In this document: in pieces, positions 13,723 to 28,024 of the stretch
Layout: every line of letters begins with the position of its first letter
How positions within the stretch are numbered: the stretch's first letter is position 1
DNA from: Promethearchaeati archaeon
GTDB lineage: Archaea; Asgardarchaeota; Heimdallarchaeia; Heimdallarchaeales; Heimdallarchaeaceae
Direction: 5' to 3'
Assembly (NCBI GenBank): GCA_013166775.1
Contig: JABLTJ010000007.1
Span: forward strand, 64,001 to 128,000
Length of the DNA stretch: 64,000 bases
Made by a program: the position numbers and the translations under genes
Notes under the pieces: generated by a model
What the model was told of the DNA's origin: nothing
The model's input: only the letters and a program-made list of their open reading frames with translations
The model's database searches: none

Positions 13723-14781
13723 ATGCCCAAAATCTCTTCTGGTTGTTCAATGATTGAACAAGGTTATCCGCAAGGAAGTTGTTTAGTAGAAACATCAGAA
13801 GGTAAAACAAAATTAGCTTGTAAATCAACGCTTAGATACTCACAAAACAAAGGTTATGAACGTGTTATTAAGTCGCATCATTTATCTCGACCAGAGGATT
13901 ATCTTTCTATATACCAGAGTGGTTGTAATCATACTTGTCTGAAATGTCACTCACATGATTTTAGCAAAGTTGTTAATGGCAAATGGATGAGTGCAGATGA
14001 AATTGCACAAGCAACTATTGAATATAGTAAGCATATAACAGTCTTTGAACCAAGAGAAGCAGCTACAAGTTGGCATGCTCATAGACTCTGTCGACATTGT
14101 GGTTCTTGTGTATTATATGGTGTTCAATCAGAAGATTGTCCTAGAAAACTCAAACAAGAACAAGTAGTTTTCAGTCCTCAAGGATTTGGTCCTGCTAGAA
14201 ATATAGTTGCTTTCACAGGTGGAGATGTAATGTGTAAACCAGATTTTTATCTAGAAGTTGCTAAGAAAATAAAGAAAGAGCTGGATGATTTTTGGATTCT
14301 TCTTGAATCAAATGGATATGGCTTAACACCTCAGAATTTAGAAGCCTATGCAGCTGGAGGTATCGATGCTTTTTGGCTAGATATTAAGGCTTTTTCAAAA
14401 GATGTTTATAGAAAACTCTGTGGAACAACAAACGAACAAATTCTGGAAAGCGTGCAAAGAATAATAGATTTTGGTTTTACTTTAGAGGTTTTAACATTGT
14501 ACATTCCTTTTTTCGTTGAAACTGATGAGCATGAAAAAATTGCTGAATTAATTGCAGGGATTGATCCAACTATTCCAACTACATTACTAGCTTTTTTTCC
14601 TTGTTACAAATTGGAATCACCAATTTATAGACCTCCAAGAAAAGAAGAGATAGTTGAGAGTATAAAAAAAATGAGAGATATTGGTTTAAAGAACTTAAGA
14701 ATTGGTAATCTTGGTACTTTTATAAAAGACAGTAGTGACATAGATTATTTAGAGGAGGAAATAGGTGCTGATTTCTTCTGA
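13723..14781 (+). CDS. radical SAM protein, PFL-activase-like
   Basis: CNHTCLKC, FTGGD, ESNGY, WLDIKA. Confidence 0.85.
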   Translation: MPKISSGCSMIEQGYPQGSCLVETSEGKTKLACKSTLRYSQNKGYERVIKSHHLSRPEDYLSIYQSGCNHTCLKCHSHDFSKVVNGKWMSADEIAQATIEYSKHITVFEPREAATSWHAHRLCRHCGSCVLYGVQSEDCPRKLKQEQVVFSPQGFGPARNIVAFTGGDVMCKPDFYLEVAKKIKKELDDFWILLESNGYGLTPQNLEAYAAGGIDAFWLDIKAFSKDVYRKLCGTTNEQILESVQRIIDFGFTLEVLTLYIPFFVETDEHEKIAELIAGIDPTIPTTLLAFFPCYKLESPIYRPPRKEEIVESIKKMRDIGLKNLRIGNLGTFIKDSSDIDYLEEEIGADFF

Positions 14782-14823
14782 ACAGCATTCCTTCAAATTG
14801 GTAAGAATTTTATATATCATTAA

Positions 14824-16230
14824 ATGATTAAAAGTATTGAGCAGTTGAAGAAAATGAAGAAGAAAGCTGTTACTGCAATTGTTATCGGAGCAGGAGATAG
14901 GGGAGCTGATGTTTATGCAAACTATGCATTAAGATTCCCTGATGAAATGAAAGTTGTAGCTGTTGCTGAACCAATTGAAGAAAGAAGGAATTTAGTAAAA
15001 GTAAAACATAATCTTAAAGAAGATAGATGTTTTTCAAGTTGGGAAAAAATTCTTGCAGAACAAAAACTAGCAGATCTAGCCATAGTAGCTACACAAGATC
15101 AAATGCATGCGGAACCTGCAATTTTAGCTATGAGAAAAGGTTACGATGTATTATTGGAAAAGCCAATGGCAAACACTATTGATGATTGTAAGGAACTTGT
15201 AGAAGTATCAAAAGAAACAGGAAAATTATTGCAAATATGTCATGTTTTAAGATATGCACCTTATTTTTCACAACTTAAGAGTGTTATCGAATCAGGAAGA
15301 ATAGGAGATATTGTTAACATATCTTGGAGAGAAAATGTTTCCTATTGGCATTACTCGCATTCATATATTAGAGGCAATTGGCATAATCGAGATGAATCAA
15401 GTCCTATGATTCTAGCGAAATCATGTCATGATATGGATCTTCTATTTTGGTTAATTAGAAGTCCAACAAAAAAGATTCATTCATTCGGAAATCAAACTCA
15501 CTTCGGAAGATTTAATCAACCAGAAGGAGCACCAGATAGATGTTTAGATGGATGTCCAGTTTCTGAATCCTGTTTATACTATGCTCCAAGGTTATATTTA
15601 GATCTTGTACCACTTATTCATATGCATAAAAAAGCAGGTTCTATTTCAGAGAAATTGTTTTCAAGTCTAGTACTTAGGTATCCAAATCTTACACAAATTC
15701 CTCCTTTTAAAAAAGTGAAAGAGTATACAGGTTGGCCAATTAGTGTTATTTCTAAAGATCTATCTTATGAAGGAAGAATCAAAGCTCTACAAGAAACTAA
15801 TTATGGAAAGTGTGTTTATGCAATTGATGATCATAATATAGTAGATCATCAAATAGTGAATATTGAATTTGATAATAAAGTAACAGCTTCATTTACAATG
15901 CATGGATTTTCAGATGAAGAAGGAAGATCATTTCGAATAGATGGCACAAAAGGAACAATTAAAGGAGATTACTTCTTCTCCAAGCAGATAATTTCAATTA
16001 TTGATGTTCTAACAGGTAAAGAAGAGCAAATTGGAACTGAAAAGATAGATATGGCTCATGGTGGTGGAGATGATGTGATCATGAAGGTTTTCTTAAAAAG
16101 TGTAAGATTTAGAGAGAAGGAGGATATTCTTACTACAGCAAGTAATGCTTTAGAATCTCATCTTATGGCTTTCGCAGCCGACATTTCTAGAGTAGAAGAA
16201 AGGATTGTTGAAATGAAAGAACTAAGATAA
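14824..16230 (+). CDS. Gfo/Idh/MocA oxidoreductase
   Basis: GAGDRG, LLEKPMA, KSCHDMD, HGGGD. Confidence 0.9.
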   Translation: MIKSIEQLKKMKKKAVTAIVIGAGDRGADVYANYALRFPDEMKVVAVAEPIEERRNLVKVKHNLKEDRCFSSWEKILAEQKLADLAIVATQDQMHAEPAILAMRKGYDVLLEKPMANTIDDCKELVEVSKETGKLLQICHVLRYAPYFSQLKSVIESGRIGDIVNISWRENVSYWHYSHSYIRGNWHNRDESSPMILAKSCHDMDLLFWLIRSPTKKIHSFGNQTHFGRFNQPEGAPDRCLDGCPVSESCLYYAPRLYLDLVPLIHMHKKAGSISEKLFSSLVLRYPNLTQIPPFKKVKEYTGWPISVISKDLSYEGRIKALQETNYGKCVYAIDDHNIVDHQIVNIEFDNKVTASFTMHGFSDEEGRSFRIDGTKGTIKGDYFFSKQIISIIDVLTGKEEQIGTEKIDMAHGGGDDVIMKVFLKSVRFREKEDILTTASNALESHLMAFAADISRVEERIVEMKELR

Positions 16231-16282: not shown

Positions 16283-16915
16283 ATGATACAAAATATAATC
16301 ATTACACACGAAAGTGGGATACCGCTTTTTGCTCGTTCATTGATGTGTCATATAGGGATGCATTGCATAGATTTAGCTAAAGATAGCACATTTACAGATG
16401 AAACTCTTTTGAATTCAGCATTGTATAGTGCTATGTTAATCTATGATCAAGCAAATCCAAATCAATTTCATGAGTTTAAGATGGATAAAAGTAAGACTCT
16501 GACCTTTCCAAACAAGAATATAACCGTCATTATGAATACAGATCCTGATGATGATTTTAATGAATATAAGAACAGATTAAGATTATTCGCAGATTTATTC
16601 ATGAAGAATTACTCGGAGAAAATAATAAATTTTGATGGAGATATCAGTCATTTCATCGGTTTTCAAGAAATTATTGCACAAGAAGGTTTACTAGATGAAG
16701 GGGAAAGATTCAGAAAGAATTGTGTGGAATGTGAATATGATAAAGCATGTGTTTACCGTATTAATATTGGACCAACCAACAAGACTTTGAAAGAAAGATT
16801 CGCCACTATAAGACCAATTGGATGGTTCAGAAAGTTTATGCTTATCATGCAAGGAATGTTTAAACCTCGCTATATTAAACTTGAACTTGAACTAGCATAT
16901 ATGATGAAGAAATAA
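16283..16915 (+). CDS. longin-like domain protein with Cys-rich C-terminal extension
   Basis: IQNIIITHESGIPLF beta-hairpin, LNSALYSAM helix, F...Y...I..FDGD...F..F longin signature; CVEC...C tail. Confidence 0.6.
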   Translation: MIQNIIITHESGIPLFARSLMCHIGMHCIDLAKDSTFTDETLLNSALYSAMLIYDQANPNQFHEFKMDKSKTLTFPNKNITVIMNTDPDDDFNEYKNRLRLFADLFMKNYSEKIINFDGDISHFIGFQEIIAQEGLLDEGERFRKNCVECEYDKACVYRINIGPTNKTLKERFATIRPIGWFRKFMLIMQGMFKPRYIKLELELAYMMKK

Positions 16916-20790: not shown

Positions 20791-22155
20791 TTAATGCAAA
20801 TATTTCACAATAAAATTACATTTTGCTGCGAGTTCTATTGCTTTTTTGATGAAACTTTCTGGAAATGGAGCATGTTGAATAAATTCTAGAAGTTTAGATT
20901 TTGCTTCATCTTTTCCTTGTAAAGCAAAAGAAGTTATGATGAATGACATAGATACTAATTTTCTTAATTCATGAAATATCATTACTGAAGCAGTTTCTAT
21001 ATCTTCACTCTTTTTAGTTTCTAAGATATTCAAGAAGTAAGTACTATCAAATTCACCATCAACAAATCCTGTGTTTAGGTTCATGATAGCTGCATTAGAT
21101 TCAATAGAATTTATTAATGAATGTTTTTCAAATACCTCAGCAGACATTCCACAAATCTTTGTTGCAGTGTTACATCTTCTCTCTTTTTCAATATCTTCTA
21201 ATGTTGTCCAGTCATGGAAATTGATAGAGAAATGTTGAGTAAAAACAGAGAGAATATCAATAATCAAGCGAACAGTTGATCTAGCTCCAATCACATAGAC
21301 AGGTCTACCGGTAATAACTGAATAGATTGCTTTTCCAAGACCTTCTTCTATTACATTTGCTAGAAATGAGAGAGAGATATCTTCAGTATCAGTTCCAGAA
21401 AAACGGATACCTGAATCTTCTATTTTTTGTAGATTATCAAGAACATCTAAAACATCAGTTATATTCTGATTTGATAGCTGAAGAAGTTTTTCATCTAAAA
21501 TAGGGAAAATTCTAAAAAGAGTGAAATCTAACTCCCGAGGAAACTTTAAGAAACCAATTTCAGTGACATCTTCTTTTCGAGAAATAACAATATAGACAGT
21601 ATATTTTTGTTCAGGTAAAAGAAAAATAATCCCAGATAGATTATCCTGTAATCGGAAGAGATCTATATAATTATGAACCATTGATGCAAGATAGCTAATA
21701 TGAGAACCAGAACCTACTTTGTCAATAATCTCATAACCATCTTCTTTATGTCTTATAGTAATTTTCGAAGGCTCTGCACCAAATATAGGATTTTTGGTAA
21801 AAAACAATTGCAGACTATTAATATCATGGAAACAGTGTTCAAGAATTAGTGCTGCTTCTCCGAAAGATAATGAATTGGGATCTCTCTCTTCTAACAGAGG
21901 AGAAGCACTTAATTTTACCTGTTCTAGAAGTTGTTTAAGTTGTCTTTCTGAAAATGTCTCTTCATCAACAATACTCTCAATAATTATGATAAAATCATGA
22001 GCTCTAACAAATGATACAGTTCTATCATGATAAGAAATAGATTGCAATTCTCTTTGGTGTACTTCCTTTGAAAAGGATATTAAAGCTGTCATTAAACCTG
22101 TAGCAAGAATCTGTTTTGTTTCATCTGATGTTTCAGGTTTAGTTGCTAGTAACAA
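20791..22155 (-). CDS. longin + DENN (folliculin-like) domain protein
   Basis: GLMTALISFSKEV longin helix; second longin-like (uDENN) unit; cDENN-like LGKAIYSVITGRPVYVIG..VRLIIDILSVF; the frame stays open upstream to 22200. Confidence 0.65.
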   Translation of the reverse strand: MLLATKPETSDETKQILATGLMTALISFSKEVHQRELQSISYHDRTVSFVRAHDFIIIIESIVDEETFSERQLKQLLEQVKLSASPLLEERDPNSLSFGEAALILEHCFHDINSLQLFFTKNPIFGAEPSKITIRHKEDGYEIIDKVGSGSHISYLASMVHNYIDLFRLQDNLSGIIFLLPEQKYTVYIVISRKEDVTEIGFLKFPRELDFTLFRIFPILDEKLLQLSNQNITDVLDVLDNLQKIEDSGIRFSGTDTEDISLSFLANVIEEGLGKAIYSVITGRPVYVIGARSTVRLIIDILSVFTQHFSINFHDWTTLEDIEKERRCNTATKICGMSAEVFEKHSLINSIESNAAIMNLNTGFVDGEFDSTYFLNILETKKSEDIETASVMIFHELRKLVSMSFIITSFALQGKDEAKSKLLEFIQHAPFPESFIKKAIELAAKCNFIVKYLH

Positions 22156-22282
22156 TCCTGAAGAAGTTACTAAAGAGAGTTTTACGTCAAAAATTAACTT
22201 TCACTTTGTTAAGTTGTATAAGTAAATTTCTTTTTGTATACTTTTCTTAAAATAGATGTAACAGATAAAATAAGAGAGAAAG

Positions 22283-22455
22283 TTATCTAAGCTTTTTCTC
22301 TTGATTTCTTTTGTCACGGATTTCATCCATGATTTCTGTTGTGAGAGTTGTAACTCCTCTTTTCTTAGCTTCTTCTACAATCATCGTCATTGCTTTTTTC
22401 AAGAAGACTCTAGGAATAGCTACAATTTTTACACAACTTCGTAAGTCCAGTAAAT
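22283..22455 (-). pseudogene. remnant of a PCP_red-like (BchB C-terminal) small domain
   Basis: WTYEVV* then frameshift into KIVAIPRVFLKKAMTMIVEEAKKRGVTTLTTEIMDEIR; matches the W..eA...iP.f......e..A...G...iT.e.m pattern. Confidence 0.5.
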
Positions 22456-22491
22456 CTATGGATTTTTTCTATCAGTTTGATATCTTACATC

Positions 22492-22922
22492 TTAATTATA
22501 ACGGATGTTCAAAAGTGAAATCGAAGCCAGAATGGTAATAAATATTCCAAACTACATATTAAGAGTCAATGTAAATGAAAGAGGAATCAACTCTCTTCTT
22601 ATTTTTGATAACCTACTGAACTTAGAAACGAAGACAAATAGAAGAAGAATTCTAATCAAAGCTATAATCTCAGCTATAGCTCCAATTGAAATACCAAAAT
22701 AGAAAGCTAAAATATCAAAATCTCCTTCTCTATGATAATCAATAAAAACTCCAAGAAGAAAGATAAATAGTGAAATTATAGAGATAGAAATAAAGATACC
22801 AAACAGATTGGAGTTCACACTTATTTTCTTCCCAAAATTAACAGGAACTTTGTTTTTTGGAGTTTTATCTTCTTCTCGAAGTTTAACATTCTTCGAGTTT
22901 TTTTTATTTCACTCTTATTCAA
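22492..22922 (-). pseudogene. small membrane protein, apparently disrupted
   Basis: ORF 22552-22818 ends at a TAG mid-TM helix that continues FGIFITILASISLLNIRYN*; a candidate TTG start at 22922 is out of frame by 1 nt across an A8 run. Confidence 0.45.
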
Positions 22923-23077
22923 TCAGACAGCATACAAATATTGAATCAAATGTAAAATCTAATTTATTAGTAGTAAAAATTTTGAGGAAGAGGAAATCTC
23001 TTGACGTTAAGATAGTTTTATAAATACTTTTACAAGAAAATATTGTAGTTTAAAAATAAATTTAAACCAAAGATTAG

Positions 23078-24505
23078 GTGGAAAGTATGAACAGCGATTA
23101 TATTTTTGATCTTCTTCACGAAGCAGTTGAAGAAGGAGAGAAGAATGGAGCAAAGTTTGTGGAAGCTAGATTTGATGATTATCAGATCAATACTATTGAT
23201 CTAACTAATGATATTATCAAGGAATCTTCCTCCAAACGAAGAAGAGGAACGGGAGTGATGGCATACTACAATGGTACACCAGGTTACTCATTTACTCCTG
23301 AGGTAAACTCAGAAGGAGTTAAAGCAGCTGCAAATAGAGCTGCTAAATTAGCTATAACTGCAGATCCTAGAAATAGAATGAAAATGGAGTTTATTGAACG
23401 TCCAGCAATAAAAGATAAAGCAGTTCCAATAATAAAGAAGCATCCAAAAGATTACGAGTTTCAAGACAAACTCGAATTGTTAAAACGTGGAACAATAGCA
23501 ATCAAAGAGAATGTTGATGCAACAACAATCCAAGGGCAATATGGAGAATTCTATGGTGAGAAATACTTTGTTAATTCTGAAGGTTCAGAAATTTATTGGG
23601 TACCAATTGTTGTAGATATGAGAGTAAGAGCAGATATTGTTGAGAATGGAAAACGTGCAACAGCAATGGATGGAATGGGACAATCTCAAGGATTAGAGTT
23701 TTTTGATCAAGAGAGAAATAGTCCAGAAGTTGTTGGAGCTAATGCAGGTAAATGGTGTAAAGAACAATTAGATGTTGTTTCAGCACCAACAGGTAAGCAA
23801 AAAGTATTAGCTGGTTCAACCTTAGGAGGAGTAATAGTTCATGAAAGTTTTGGACATCTGTCGGAAGCTGATTTTGTAGTTACAGGGATGAGTCCTATAG
23901 CTGATAGATTAGGAGAAAAACTTGGAAATGATCTTGTAACAATAATCGATGAAGGAGTAACTCCATATGGTGGTTGGTTCTTCCCTTATGATGATCAAGG
24001 AACTAAAGCTGGTCGAACTGTAATAGTAGAAAATGGAATCCTGAAGGGATACTTACATGACAGAGGAACAGCACAAAAAATGAACACTGAACCTACTGCG
24101 AATAGTAGAGCTTTAAGTTTTATGTTCCCAAGTATATGTAGAATGAAGAATACATATTTTGAAAAGGGTGATCTCACGGAAGAAGAAGCTATAGAAATGG
24201 TAGGTGATGGGATATATGCAATAAGCTGGAGAGGAGGAACAGCGAGTTTCGATGGTAATTTCCTCTTTAATTGCAGCAGAGGATACTTGATAGAGAAGGG
24301 AGAAGTGACAAAACCTATCAAAACAGCATCATTATCAGGAAATGTTCTCGAGCTACTAAAACATGTAGAAGGAACAACAAAGAATATGATTTTGCGAGGA
24401 AACTTCTTTGGGGGCTGTGGGAAGGGAGAACAGTTTCCGCTACCTGTAGGGATGGGTGGTCCTGAAGTAGTGATGGACCAAGTTCTAGTTGGAGGTGCTC
24501 AATAA
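23078..24505 (+). CDS. tldD: TldD metalloprotease subunit
   Basis: HESFGH (HExxxH), YDDQG, RMKNTY, CGKGEQ...PVGMGGP. Confidence 0.92.
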   Translation: MESMNSDYIFDLLHEAVEEGEKNGAKFVEARFDDYQINTIDLTNDIIKESSSKRRRGTGVMAYYNGTPGYSFTPEVNSEGVKAAANRAAKLAITADPRNRMKMEFIERPAIKDKAVPIIKKHPKDYEFQDKLELLKRGTIAIKENVDATTIQGQYGEFYGEKYFVNSEGSEIYWVPIVVDMRVRADIVENGKRATAMDGMGQSQGLEFFDQERNSPEVVGANAGKWCKEQLDVVSAPTGKQKVLAGSTLGGVIVHESFGHLSEADFVVTGMSPIADRLGEKLGNDLVTIIDEGVTPYGGWFFPYDDQGTKAGRTVIVENGILKGYLHDRGTAQKMNTEPTANSRALSFMFPSICRMKNTYFEKGDLTEEEAIEMVGDGIYAISWRGGTASFDGNFLFNCSRGYLIEKGEVTKPIKTASLSGNVLELLKHVEGTTKNMILRGNFFGGCGKGEQFPLPVGMGGPEVVMDQVLVGGAQ

Positions 24506-25878
24506 TGTCCTTTGATGATTTTCGTGATAAATTACTCAATATTTCTGATTCAGCAATTAAATATTCGAAAGATTTGAGTATACCATCTGCAGAGATTTTC
24601 GTTTTTAGTCAATCTTCAACAGATCTCTCTGATCAAAATGGAAAGATAGATATCAAAGATGGTGTGAAACAAGGAGTAGGTATCCGAGTAGCTATTGGTA
24701 AGAAATTAGGTTTTGCTAGTTGTACAGGATTTGAGGAGGAACCAATAAAAGGTGCATTAAAACAAGCTCATTCATTGGCTAAAGTTAGTCCGGAAAATCC
24801 TTTATTTAATGGTTTTACACCTGATAGTATCAGAGCGAACGAAGGTACACTTGATTCAAGATTGTTTGATGTTGATGCAATTGCTCTAGGTAAAAATATT
24901 GATGAAATCAGCAATCAGATAGATAAAAATGATAAAAGGCTTACATTTACTTATTTTGGTGCGACTGTTAGTATCGAAGGTTATGCTGTAGGTACTACAG
25001 AAGGTTGCCTTTCTTCAACTCTGTCATCTGGTACAGGTTCTTTTGCTTATGTTATTGCAATGGAAGCTGGAGAGAGAAGTACAGGTAGTTGGAGTGAATT
25101 CAGTCGTGGAATCCATTCTTTAGAGGGTATAGGCGAAACTGCTAGTAAAAGAGCATTGAGAGGATTAGGAAAGAAAGATTTTGAGGGAACAGAAATACTT
25201 CCAACAGTTTGGGAATCTAAAACTACTGCTTCATTTCTATTATATCCATTTTTCACAGGAACTTCAGGTTCAGGATATGTTGAGAAGAGAAATCCTTGGG
25301 GAGAAAAATTAGATAAAGAACTCGCAGTTAAAGAGTTGAATGTAATTGATGATGGAATTAATCCTGATTACCTAACTACTCACGCAATAGATACTGAAGG
25401 TACTCCAAGAAGGAAAACAACAATTGTAGAAAATGGTGTTCTGAAATCATTCTTATATAATAGAATGTATGGTCATGCTGTAGGAAAAGAATCAACAGGA
25501 AATGCTAGAAGAGAAGGTGCGGGGGGAACACCTTTTGAAAATGTTCCAAGCTCCGTACCAAATAAAATTATAGTCCAAACTGGAAGTAAAAGCCTAGAAG
25601 ATCAAATAAGCGAAATAGACAAGGGAATTCTAGTACCTACACTACCTTTAGGAATAGAGAATTTCAATCCTATTACTGGAGATTTCAGTAGTTCTTCAAC
25701 TGACTCTTTTCTAATTCTTAAGGGTCAAATAGTTTATCCGATAAAGAATATTACAGTTGCAGGAAACTTTAACGACACATTGATGAATATACAAACCATT
25801 GGATCAGATAGAATTCCAACATCAAATCCTATAGATTCTCCTTCAATGACATTCAGGGGACATACAATAGGCAGTTAA
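24505..25878 (+). CDS. pmbA: TldE/PmbA subunit
   Basis: Translationally coupled to tldD; DTEG, STGNA, NPITGDFS, AGN; lacks HExxxH. Confidence 0.9.
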   Translation: MSFDDFRDKLLNISDSAIKYSKDLSIPSAEIFVFSQSSTDLSDQNGKIDIKDGVKQGVGIRVAIGKKLGFASCTGFEEEPIKGALKQAHSLAKVSPENPLFNGFTPDSIRANEGTLDSRLFDVDAIALGKNIDEISNQIDKNDKRLTFTYFGATVSIEGYAVGTTEGCLSSTLSSGTGSFAYVIAMEAGERSTGSWSEFSRGIHSLEGIGETASKRALRGLGKKDFEGTEILPTVWESKTTASFLLYPFFTGTSGSGYVEKRNPWGEKLDKELAVKELNVIDDGINPDYLTTHAIDTEGTPRRKTTIVENGVLKSFLYNRMYGHAVGKESTGNARREGAGGTPFENVPSSVPNKIIVQTGSKSLEDQISEIDKGILVPTLPLGIENFNPITGDFSSSSTDSFLILKGQIVYPIKNITVAGNFNDTLMNIQTIGSDRIPTSNPIDSPSMTFRGHTIGS

Positions 25879-26998: not shown

Positions 26999-28024
26999 TC
27001 ATTGCTTCAAAGCTCTTATCCAGAGATAAAGATCTTTCTTGCAATTAGGACATTTAGGATTTTTTTCGAGCCATGCTAAGATATGATTTTTATGAGCATA
27101 GACTTCGCAGCAAGGAGTTCGAACAACATCTTCTTTCTCTGAAGGTTTTAAATCCAATAAACAGACACAACAGGTTGGTCTGGAAGCAGTACACTTATCA
27201 CATTTTTCTTCTTTTGTTTCAAATAAATCCCCACATGAATAACAGAGTAATTCTTCAACATCAACTTCTCCATAATCATCAATGGAGATTTCCTGATATA
27301 ATAATCGGATAAGCTCCAATATTTGATAGATCTCATAAGGGGATTTTAATATTCCTGAAACAAACTTTCCATTAAAAGTCACAGATTTGATATTTAATGC
27401 TTGTTTCATAAGAATCGATCGTATATTTTGATTATTTGAAACAGTATCAATTAGAGATGATCGTGTTGAAAAAACATAATACAATGAACTAAATTTCGCA
27501 TTTTCTGTTTCTTTTGTATCTGTTTTTCTTACACTCAAAGCAAAAGGATATGCATTCTTTAGTATAGCATCAATTGTAATTATTTCTGATGATTTTAGAA
27601 CCAAACTGACATTAGCTAGGAAACTAAGCTTATTATCAGGCGGAAAATTAAAAGATACTCTAGGTGGAAATTCATAACTTGCTTGTATGTTAACAGCTCC
27701 TATTGTTTCCAAACTTGGTGTAATAGTTTCACTTAATACATGACTCTTATCAGTTGAAGTGTTTCTGTCTCTTAGTCTTTGAACTAATGCAAAATTCTGT
27801 CTGAAACTCTTTTCTTTTGTCATTCTAAAATACCATCCTGCTCCAAGAAATAGAGGTATGCCTACTATACCTGCTGTAATCATAAGAGTTAATGCATTAA
27901 GATTGGTTATTTTAAAAAGAAAGTAAAAAAGTGTTATAAATCCTCCAAACAAACCAATAACAATTATTATTGCAACTAATGTAGAAAAAGAAGATCTCCA
28001 AGTAGACTTAACAGACATTTCCAA
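26999..28024 (-). CDS. membrane-anchored zinc-ribbon + RING-finger protein (E3 ubiquitin ligase-like)
   Basis: Two N-terminal TM; CYSC...CDKC; RING-like CCVC-x16-CC-x4-H-x2-H-ILAW-x6-CPNC. Confidence 0.8.
   Translation of the reverse strand: MEMSVKSTWRSSFSTLVAIIIVIGLFGGFITLFYFLFKITNLNALTLMITAGIVGIPLFLGAGWYFRMTKEKSFRQNFALVQRLRDRNTSTDKSHVLSETITPSLETIGAVNIQASYEFPPRVSFNFPPDNKLSFLANVSLVLKSSEIITIDAILKNAYPFALSVRKTDTKETENAKFSSLYYVFSTRSSLIDTVSNNQNIRSILMKQALNIKSVTFNGKFVSGILKSPYEIYQILELIRLLYQEISIDDYGEVDVEELLCYSCGDLFETKEEKCDKCTASRPTCCVCLLDLKPSEKEDVVRTPCCEVYAHKNHILAWLEKNPKCPNCKKDLYLWIRALKQ

Follow-up and report, generated by a model that had tools for sequence, protein, structure and literature searches.

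All eukaryotes rely on DENN and longin modules to control their Rab, Arf, and Rag GTPases. Folliculin-FNIP and C9orf72-SMCR8 are longin-DENN heterodimers that act as GTPase-activating proteins (GAPs) for RagC/D and Arf. DENND1A and DENND1B carry the uDENN-cDENN-dDENN module that serves as guanine nucleotide exchange factor (GEF) for Rab35, and the tri-longin Rab GEFs (Mon1-Ccz1, Fuzzy-Inturned, and BLOC-3) are single chains with multiple longins that act as paralogue heterodimers. Here, we describe a gene located in a stretch of 64,000 nucleotides of contig JABLTJ010000007.1 (positions 64,001 to 128,000, hereafter the window), which belongs to the metagenome-assembled genome (MAG) of a Heimdallarchaeaceae archaeon (GCA_013166775.1; 115 contigs, 88.7% complete, 4.46% contamination, 31% GC). 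The product of this gene, P0001, is predicted to carry two longins ahead of the DENN core. Taking all lines of evidence together, we think it likely that this is a lineage-restricted double-longin DENN gene that arose as a hybrid between two tandem paralogues (B::A), lost an adjacent GTPase cassette, and encodes a putative GTPase regulator.

Proteins with DENN domains have been described in Asgard archaea. The parts of Liu et al. (bioRxiv 10.1101/2020.10.19.343400) on which we draw report an Asgard operon in which a small GTPase is linked to a Roadblock and to a DENN protein, the expansion of DENN paralogue families with non-eukaryotic architectures in the Loki, Hel, and Heimdall lineages, and Heimdall proteins with the exact longin-DENN organisation of FLCN. 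The initial annotation of our gene, made from the sequence, had stated that DENN-like domains occur in Asgard archaea, which matches these reports. The double-longin family is from the same phylum-level group and of the same domain class as the proteins described in those parts of the preprint; it differs from them in having an additional N-terminal longin, in being limited to one archaeal family (as searched), and in its cassette, and the present gene differs further in being a B::A hybrid without cassette. Because the literature already includes both Asgard DENN proteins and Heimdall proteins of FLCN-like type, the class to which the locus belongs is not new. What is particular to it, as read from the DNA, is the recombinant gene, its non-ATG start, and the loss of the GTPase cassette.

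The frame spanning 20794-22194 on the reverse strand of the window translates into 467 residues with zero stops, and no earlier start is possible because a TGA sits two codons 5' of 22194. An open reading frame (ORF) caller given the start set of translation table 11 returned 20791..22194, starting at ATT; given only ATG, GTG, and TTG, it placed the start at the TTG of position 22155 (codon 14), for a product of 454 aa. The initial M of the homologues (MFDVKLSLV...) aligns exactly to the ATT position, so the coordinates 20791-22194 of the initial annotation are right. The single open frame it had reported contains all of the segments it quoted (SGLLLA, GLMTALISFSKEV, LQSISY, RHKEDG, FLLPEQKYTVY, the LSFLANVIEEGLGKAIYSVITGRPVYVIG segment, ICGMS, and IMNLNTG). 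We found 76 homologues with E-values from 1e-69 to 1e-251, so that a chance ORF can be dismissed. Nearly all of them have 465-473 aa and are collinear from end to end (coverage of 97-100%), and the gene under study is itself collinear with the double-longin DENN family over its full length (~467 aa) and keeps all of the 30 family-invariant residues. The homologues with a source name come without exception from Heimdallarchaeaceae or Heimdallarchaeota, in agreement with the earlier proposal of an Asgard protein. When 1.8 billion representatives were searched exhaustively with HMMER, only 40 clusters matched, all of Heimdall type where named. The family is therefore small and confined to one lineage.

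We built an AlphaFold2 (AF2) model on an alignment of 66 sequences and compared it with known structures by Foldseek and VIA-align (VIA). The model of the whole protein has a mean predicted local distance difference test score (pLDDT) of 85.7 and a predicted template modelling score (pTM) of 0.85. The N-terminal domain (modelled elements at residues 4-126) starts with two strands and a helix, which are followed by three strands and a pair of helices. It matches the first longin domain (LD1) of Fuzzy, Sec22b, VAMP7, LD1 of Mon1/Ccz1, and the sigma/zeta adaptin subunits with Z of 11-12.3; because these scores are tied, we class it as a generic longin, as had been proposed from the letters. The middle domain repeats this order of elements between residues 141 and 242, with a single final helix, and retains a pLDDT of 86.7 when folded alone (residues 132-250). 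Its best match is the longin of the Lokiarchaeal Roadblock-Longin protein 8yqg (Z 7.6, Foldseek E 5e-4, TM score 0.54), then comes the Lst4/FNIP longin 4zy8 (Z 7.1), and further matches include Roadblock proteins and the longins of C9orf72, FNIP2, FLCN, and the uDENN of DENND1A (Z 5-5.7). The Z-scores are moderate, but longin and roadblock domains dominate the list, which leads us to regard the domain as the equivalent of the uDENN longin. The second longin-like unit of the initial annotation thus holds when residues 141-245 are analysed alone.

The remainder of the protein is predicted to have alternating helices and strands (residues 275-383), succeeded by a lobe of five helices (385-394, 399-423, 428-441, 446-459, and 461-466). 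Residues 271-465 align with the c/dDENN of DENND1A (6ekk_A: Z 12.3, root-mean-square deviation (rmsd) 5.4, 182 aligned residues), with DENND1B (3tw8_C: Z 12.1, rmsd 4.8, 176 aligned), SMCR8 (6lt0_B: Z 11.8, rmsd 3.3, 195 aligned), the crystal structure of the folliculin C-terminal domain (3v42_B: Z 11.7, rmsd 3.3, 176/199 aligned), and DENND10 (Z 10.8, rmsd 4.0, 183 aligned). The VIA alignments to DENN proteins extend to residues 460-466 and thus take in the helical lobe. The predicted C-terminal half therefore has the alpha/beta fold of the cDENN core, and the 'helical tail' of the initial annotation aligns with dDENN lobes. The precomputed Pfam family PF27109 (SMCR8_C) is assigned to the window's own product and to many homologues, in some cases marked as weak. 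Neighbours in the ESM Atlas, which we take as leads only, include clusters of folliculin, C9orf72, and SMCR8, and a Heimdall cluster of 380 aa with one longin fewer.

Some sequence searches speak against this assignment. The local Pfam search gave no match to DENN, Folliculin (PF11704), or Folliculin_C, and the family profile had no significant match among the PDB sequences; the DENN membership thus rests on the predicted structure and the precomputed SMCR8_C. A search of NCBIfam gave no match, and the search of PDB with the single sequence gave only a chance match to SIR2 (E 0.8). PF11704 had no match in the proteins of the same genome, which is uninformative because the control genomes equally lack one. 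Given the extent and the scores of the structural alignments, the protein is nonetheless almost certainly a member of the DENN-fold family. The model also supports an architecture in which an extra longin stands ahead of a complete longin-cDENN-dDENN module. The likeness to DENND1A/B lies in this tripartite order (longin, alpha/beta core, helical lobe) and in their being the best Foldseek and VIA matches of the C-terminal 195 residues (E 4e-8, Z 12.1-12.3), whereas the rmsd is high (4.8-5.4), the identity is 10-12%, and the Pfam models DENN, uDENN, and dDENN do not match.

One could instead regard the protein as a subunit of a tri-longin Rab GEF, of the Mon1-Ccz1, Fuzzy-Inturned, or HPS1-HPS4 kind. 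The sole local Pfam match of the protein is Intu_longin_1 (E 0.007, below the cut-off), Foldseek matches include chains of Mon1, Ccz1, Fuzzy, Inturned, and BLOC-3, and the N-terminal longin resembles the first longin of these proteins (Z 11.5-12.2; 12.2 for LD1 of Fuzzy, with 17-19% identity). Yet such matches are restricted to residues 1-130, or span two domains in a different orientation (rmsd 15 over residues 1-247). The third domain has strand-helix units and then a helical bundle instead of the longin order of two strands, helix, three strands, and helix, and it aligns to DENN domains with Z of ~12. As the predicted third domain is DENN and not longin, we rejected this identity, which we regard as most improbable.

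The origin of the gene became apparent from the comparison with its relatives. In these, the order of genes is a TldD/PmbA pair, a 164-aa protein, an Arf-family GTPase (Pfam Arf, 1.2e-40), a membrane protein, a 286-aa flavin-reductase-like protein, two tandem paralogues of the family (B and then A), an ABC ATPase, a protein with 12 transmembrane segments (12-TM), and an epimerase. Both paralogues in tandem, together with the Arf cassette, are present in L003, L008, and G019. The window has the same flanks and only one gene of the family. Two matches to the family were found in 15 of the 24 other genomes of the genus and three in two more, and one other genome of the genus (L006) has the B-A pair without the Arf cassette. 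The genomes of two other genera, two closed ones among them, have a single copy and no Arf cassette within 8 kb. Because these other genera carry one copy, the A/B duplication is a genus-level event and the single-copy state is ancestral. The association with the Arf-like gene is local and not general, since neither the single-copy genera nor L006 have the cassette.

The assignment of the whole gene to one of the two paralogue clades fails. Its first 60 residues are 97% identical to the clade-B proteins P0029, P0043, and P0045 and 60% identical to the clade-A proteins P0003 and P0004. Over residues 61-467, in windows of 60 residues, the identity is 78-92% to P0003/P0004 versus 23-58% to the three clade-B proteins. 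In nucleotide windows, the best match changes from B to A at nt 150-185. Partitioned trees give the same picture: the N-terminal part (61 residues) branches within clade B, at a distance of 0.035, and the C-terminal part (residues 62-467) within clade A beside P0003, P0004, and G019-A. The upstream flank is that of B: it has the AAATTTACTTATA box and, 6 nt ahead of the start, the GTGA, and it retains ~65 codons from the 3' end of the 286-aa gene. Searches with the protein and with the family profile found no second family copy in the 88.7%-complete assembly. We conclude that the gene is very probably a genuine B::A hybrid, with the start of B up to codon ~58 and A thereafter. In the simplest history, a deletion of ~1.46 kb between the tandem paralogues, with a crossover at codons 57-60, would have joined the promoter, the start, and the first ~58 codons of B to the remainder of A, so that one hybrid gene was left. 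Gene conversion with B kept elsewhere was considered and rejected, given that the upstream flank is B's own and that the assembly has no second copy.

The junction and the ATT are known from a single MAG, and this weighs against the hybrid being real. An assembler could have collapsed B and A into one gene, with the ATT as a consensus error; the 115 contigs and the 4.46% contamination of the MAG are compatible with such an artefact of assembly or binning. An exact 35-mer spanning the junction had 0 matches in metagenome and genome contigs, among which the source's own records are possibly not included, and a search for contigs encoding the 454-aa product gave none. However, B and A of the relatives share identical runs of just ~5-6 bases near the junction, far under the word size of assemblers. 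Both flanks are collinear with the relatives over kilobases within one contig of more than 128 kb, no leftover 3' fragment of B or 5' fragment of A is found elsewhere in the assembly, and the separate deletion of the cassette is paralleled in an independent assembly (L006). We therefore consider an assembly artefact unlikely, with a small probability at best, and retain the B::A recombination as the explanation of the junction.

Is the hybrid copy still functional? The comparisons with the relatives show an intact frame, with substitution ratios that indicate purifying selection. The ratio of nonsynonymous to synonymous substitutions (dN/dS) of the A-derived part against the nearest A orthologues is 0.25-0.27, and 0.19 between those orthologues; that of the B-derived part is 0.005-0.026. 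Codons 1-61 of clade B (L006, L012 (G019), L008, and L005) are nearly frozen at the level of the protein, with these same low values at a synonymous divergence (dS) of 0.56-1.5. Between L006 and G019, dS is 0.96 for B and 0.27 for A, so that B and A seem to have different histories, possibly because of inter-strain recombination.

Several features count against a working gene. An ATT, which is a poor start codon, replaces the ATG kept in four relatives. A TATA-like box lies just ~22 nt upstream, so that the messenger RNA may be nearly leaderless; leaderless transcripts would depend on AUG, and expression may thus be badly impaired. The partner paralogue and the GTPase cassette have both been lost. 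The gene could therefore be a decaying relic, unneeded after these losses, in which the change from ATG to ATT was the first disabling mutation. One copy instead of two, the reduction of the cassette to a 3' stub, and the dN/dS slightly above that of the nearest A orthologues go in this direction. Against decay, 467 codons are free of stops and frameshifts at 31% GC, every invariant residue of the family is retained, and dN/dS is well under 1. ATT is allowed as a start in table 11, and the alignment with the relatives shows that the GTGA 6 nt ahead of it and the upstream AAATTTACTTATA box are conserved. L006 retains the B-A pair without the cassette, which shows that the cassette is not required for the retention of the genes. 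We thus give decay a minor, if appreciable, probability, and find it rather likely, from these patterns of conservation, that the hybrid is still functional. A scan for promoters and terminators of bacterial type remained at background level; this type of scan is not relevant to archaea.

By analogy with eukaryotic DENN and longin modules, the protein would bind and regulate a small GTPase, and we favour such a role somewhat over others. Binding would probably involve the first longin, which is highly conserved. The first ~60 residues of this domain are by far the most constrained part of the protein (97% identity among the nearest B proteins, at dS 0.56-1.5 where DNA was compared), which suggests that they form the key interface. 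The client might be one of the roughly dozen other small GTPases encoded in the genome. Two points weaken the case for a particular client. No orthologue of the cassette GTPase was found, the best match in the same genome being only 37% identical, so the presumed client is missing from the assembly as searched. Besides, only in one genus does the Arf-like gene neighbour the family; it is missing here, from L006, and from the surroundings of the single copies in other genera.

The biochemical role might be that of an arginine-finger GAP of the FLCN-FNIP/C9orf72-SMCR8 type, acting on an Arf- or Rag-like GTPase through a catalytic pocket between longins. The gene resembles these systems in several ways: a longin comes before the c/dDENN, its DENN half can be laid over both SMCR8 and FLCN with an rmsd of 3.3 (6lt0_B, 3v42_B), the middle domain resembles the longins of Lst4/FNIP, C9orf72, and SMCR8, and the precomputed SMCR8_C is assigned to the family. 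Further, the relatives encode two adjacent paralogues beside an Arf-family GTPase, which recalls the heterodimeric Arf-GAP of the C9orf72-SMCR8-WDR41 (CSW) complex. The GAP-type longins of FLCN, SMCR8, C9orf72, and NPRL2 are defined by a GP motif that closes the loop preceding strand 2 and by an arginine finger, and this signature has been described in some Heimdallarchaeial longins of the FLCN/SMCR8 type (PMC12290439). The double-longin family, in contrast, appears to lack it. No column has the GP dipeptide in more than 30% of the 90 family members, and the positions that match the motif are G13-L14 in the first longin and G152-Y153 in the second. The only arginine-rich columns of the longins are R58 (R in 74%, K in 20%; turn between strands 3 and 4) and R228 (89%; last helix of the second longin). 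Both R/K58 and R228 would lie off the side of the sheet where the finger is expected, an expectation that comes from a reading of longin topology and not from coordinates. Unlike the eukaryotic heterodimers, the family has an additional N-terminal longin, and the expected loops carry no conserved arginine; the identity is 9-16%, Pfam Folliculin (PF11704) does not match the protein, and here a single gene is present, the obligate paralogue partner not having been found in the 88.7%-complete assembly. A GAP of this type is accordingly improbable. The 'folliculin-like' label of the initial annotation stands for the fold (3v42_B, Z 11.7) and fails for the GP motif and probably for the arginine finger of the FLCN/SMCR8 GAP longins. 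Since the signature of the FLCN/SMCR8/NPRL2-type GAPs appears to be missing, we lean, with low confidence, to a GEF-like or scaffolding role.

The prediction of a homodimer, made with two copies and the family alignment, scored 0.01, a value that counts neither way. The initial annotation had suggested that the two longins of the chain could form an internal version of the longin-longin heterodimers of FLCN-FNIP or C9orf72-SMCR8; known single chains that cover both longins align with an rmsd of 15 at best. It is conceivable, if quite doubtful, that the B::A hybrid works as a single-gene replacement for an A/B heterodimer. In this reading, the strands 1-2, helix 1, and strand 3 that the first longin takes from B would sit on a body of A, and each protomer would show the surfaces of both paralogues and could pair with itself. 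If true, this would be a natural domain swap, in which ~58 residues set the choice of partner in an archaeal forerunner of the FLCN-FNIP and C9orf72-SMCR8 complexes.

Table 1. Coordinates in the window of the hybrid gene, its predicted domains, and the adjoining sequences.
Feature	Position	Strand	Basis
Whole gene, double-longin DENN protein (P0001)	20791..22194	(-)	467 codons and stop; ORF calls, homologues, AF2 model
Predicted longin domain 1 (residues 1-128), extra N-terminal longin	21811..22194	(-)	AF2 secondary structure; VIA Z 11-12.3; weak Pfam Intu_longin_1
Predicted longin/roadblock domain 2 (residues 141-245), uDENN-equivalent	21460..21774	(-)	Domain model; 8yqg Z 7.6, Lst4 Z 7.1; FLCN full-length alignment 141-460
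Predicted cDENN alpha/beta core (residues ~270-383)	21046..21387	(-)	AF2, VIA; family-invariant G303, Q320-H321, G349
Predicted dDENN helical bundle (residues 385-467)	20794..21042	(-)	AF2, VIA
Segment assigned to paralogue B (codons 1 to ~58; strands 1-2, helix 1, strand 3 of longin 1)	22021..22194	(-)	Identity windows, nucleotide windows, partition trees
Proposed crossover interval between B type and A type (codons 57-60, HDRT)	22016..22024	(-)	Five-way DNA alignment
ATT where the compared relatives carry the ATG start	22192..22194	(-)	Alignment with four relatives; next in-frame start TTG 22155
AAATTTACTTATA box, candidate archaeal TATA/transcription factor B recognition element	22217..22229	(-)	Largely conserved 5' of paralogue B in relatives, identical in 3/4 compared
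3' stub of the 286-aa flavin-reductase-like gene (residues ~222-287 only)	22283..22489	(-)	tblastn 78-92% identity; blastn 86% to G019
~510 bp without match in relatives, in place of ~2.6 kb	22490..22999	(.)	Comparison with relatives' loci

In the relatives, the missing ~2.6 kb holds the genes of the 164-aa protein, the Arf-like GTPase, and the membrane protein together with the larger part of the 286-aa gene (Table 1). We searched 22150-23120 for remnants of the first three and found none; the only remnant is the stub of the 286-aa gene. A second event would have swapped this cassette region for the ~510 bp of unrelated sequence. The latter contains an 88-aa ORF (22552-22818, (-)) resembling a small membrane protein with two or three helices. 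In every relative examined, the DENN locus is bounded on the outside by the TldD/PmbA metallopeptidase tandem (475 and 457 aa), which lies here at 23078-25878 (+). On the other side, the genes of the ABC ATPase, the 12-TM protein, and the epimerase separate the DENN gene from a 210-aa gene ~4 kb away (16283-16915, (+)). Its place with respect to the DENN genes is likewise taken by a gene of 204-210 aa in L003, L005, and L008, which makes it a conserved neighbour. The window also encodes a 341-aa protein (26999-28024, (-)) that has a RING finger in its C-terminal region (Pfam zf-RING_2, E 3e-6, slightly above the cut-off).

Elsewhere in the genome, contig C16 encodes a distant 342-aa paralogue (L002:1327-2355 (-), equal to L009:7916-8944 (-)) with one longin and a cDENN-like segment, that is, the plain layout of FLCN-like proteins. 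Its match to the family profile covers positions 273-417 (E 2.3e-9). At ~3 kb from it, with unrelated genes between, is an Arf-family GTPase with a C-terminal extension (L009:3763-4716; 317 aa, Pfam Arf 1.2e-32). A 671-aa frame of contig C10 has a weak match (14666-14884, (-); E 8e-5) to profile positions 21-91, which correspond to the first longin, and may encode a longin-headed protein.

The presence of DENN and longin modules in archaea of the Heimdall group bears on the origin of the endomembrane switch machinery. For the double-longin variant, the assignment of the fold holds at good model confidence; more speculatively, proteins built in this way could be remnants of a stage intermediate between tri-longin GEFs and DENN regulators. 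The apparent lack of the FLCN/SMCR8/NPRL2 GAP signature in the family argues against a plain transfer of the function 'Rag/Arf GAP' to its members. Finally, the locus suggests that a pair of paralogues can collapse into one recombinant gene that persists without the adjacent Arf-like GTPase. Such a collapse would constrain the ideas of an obligatory heterodimer and of an obligatory client in this family, and it provides a natural chimera for experiments.

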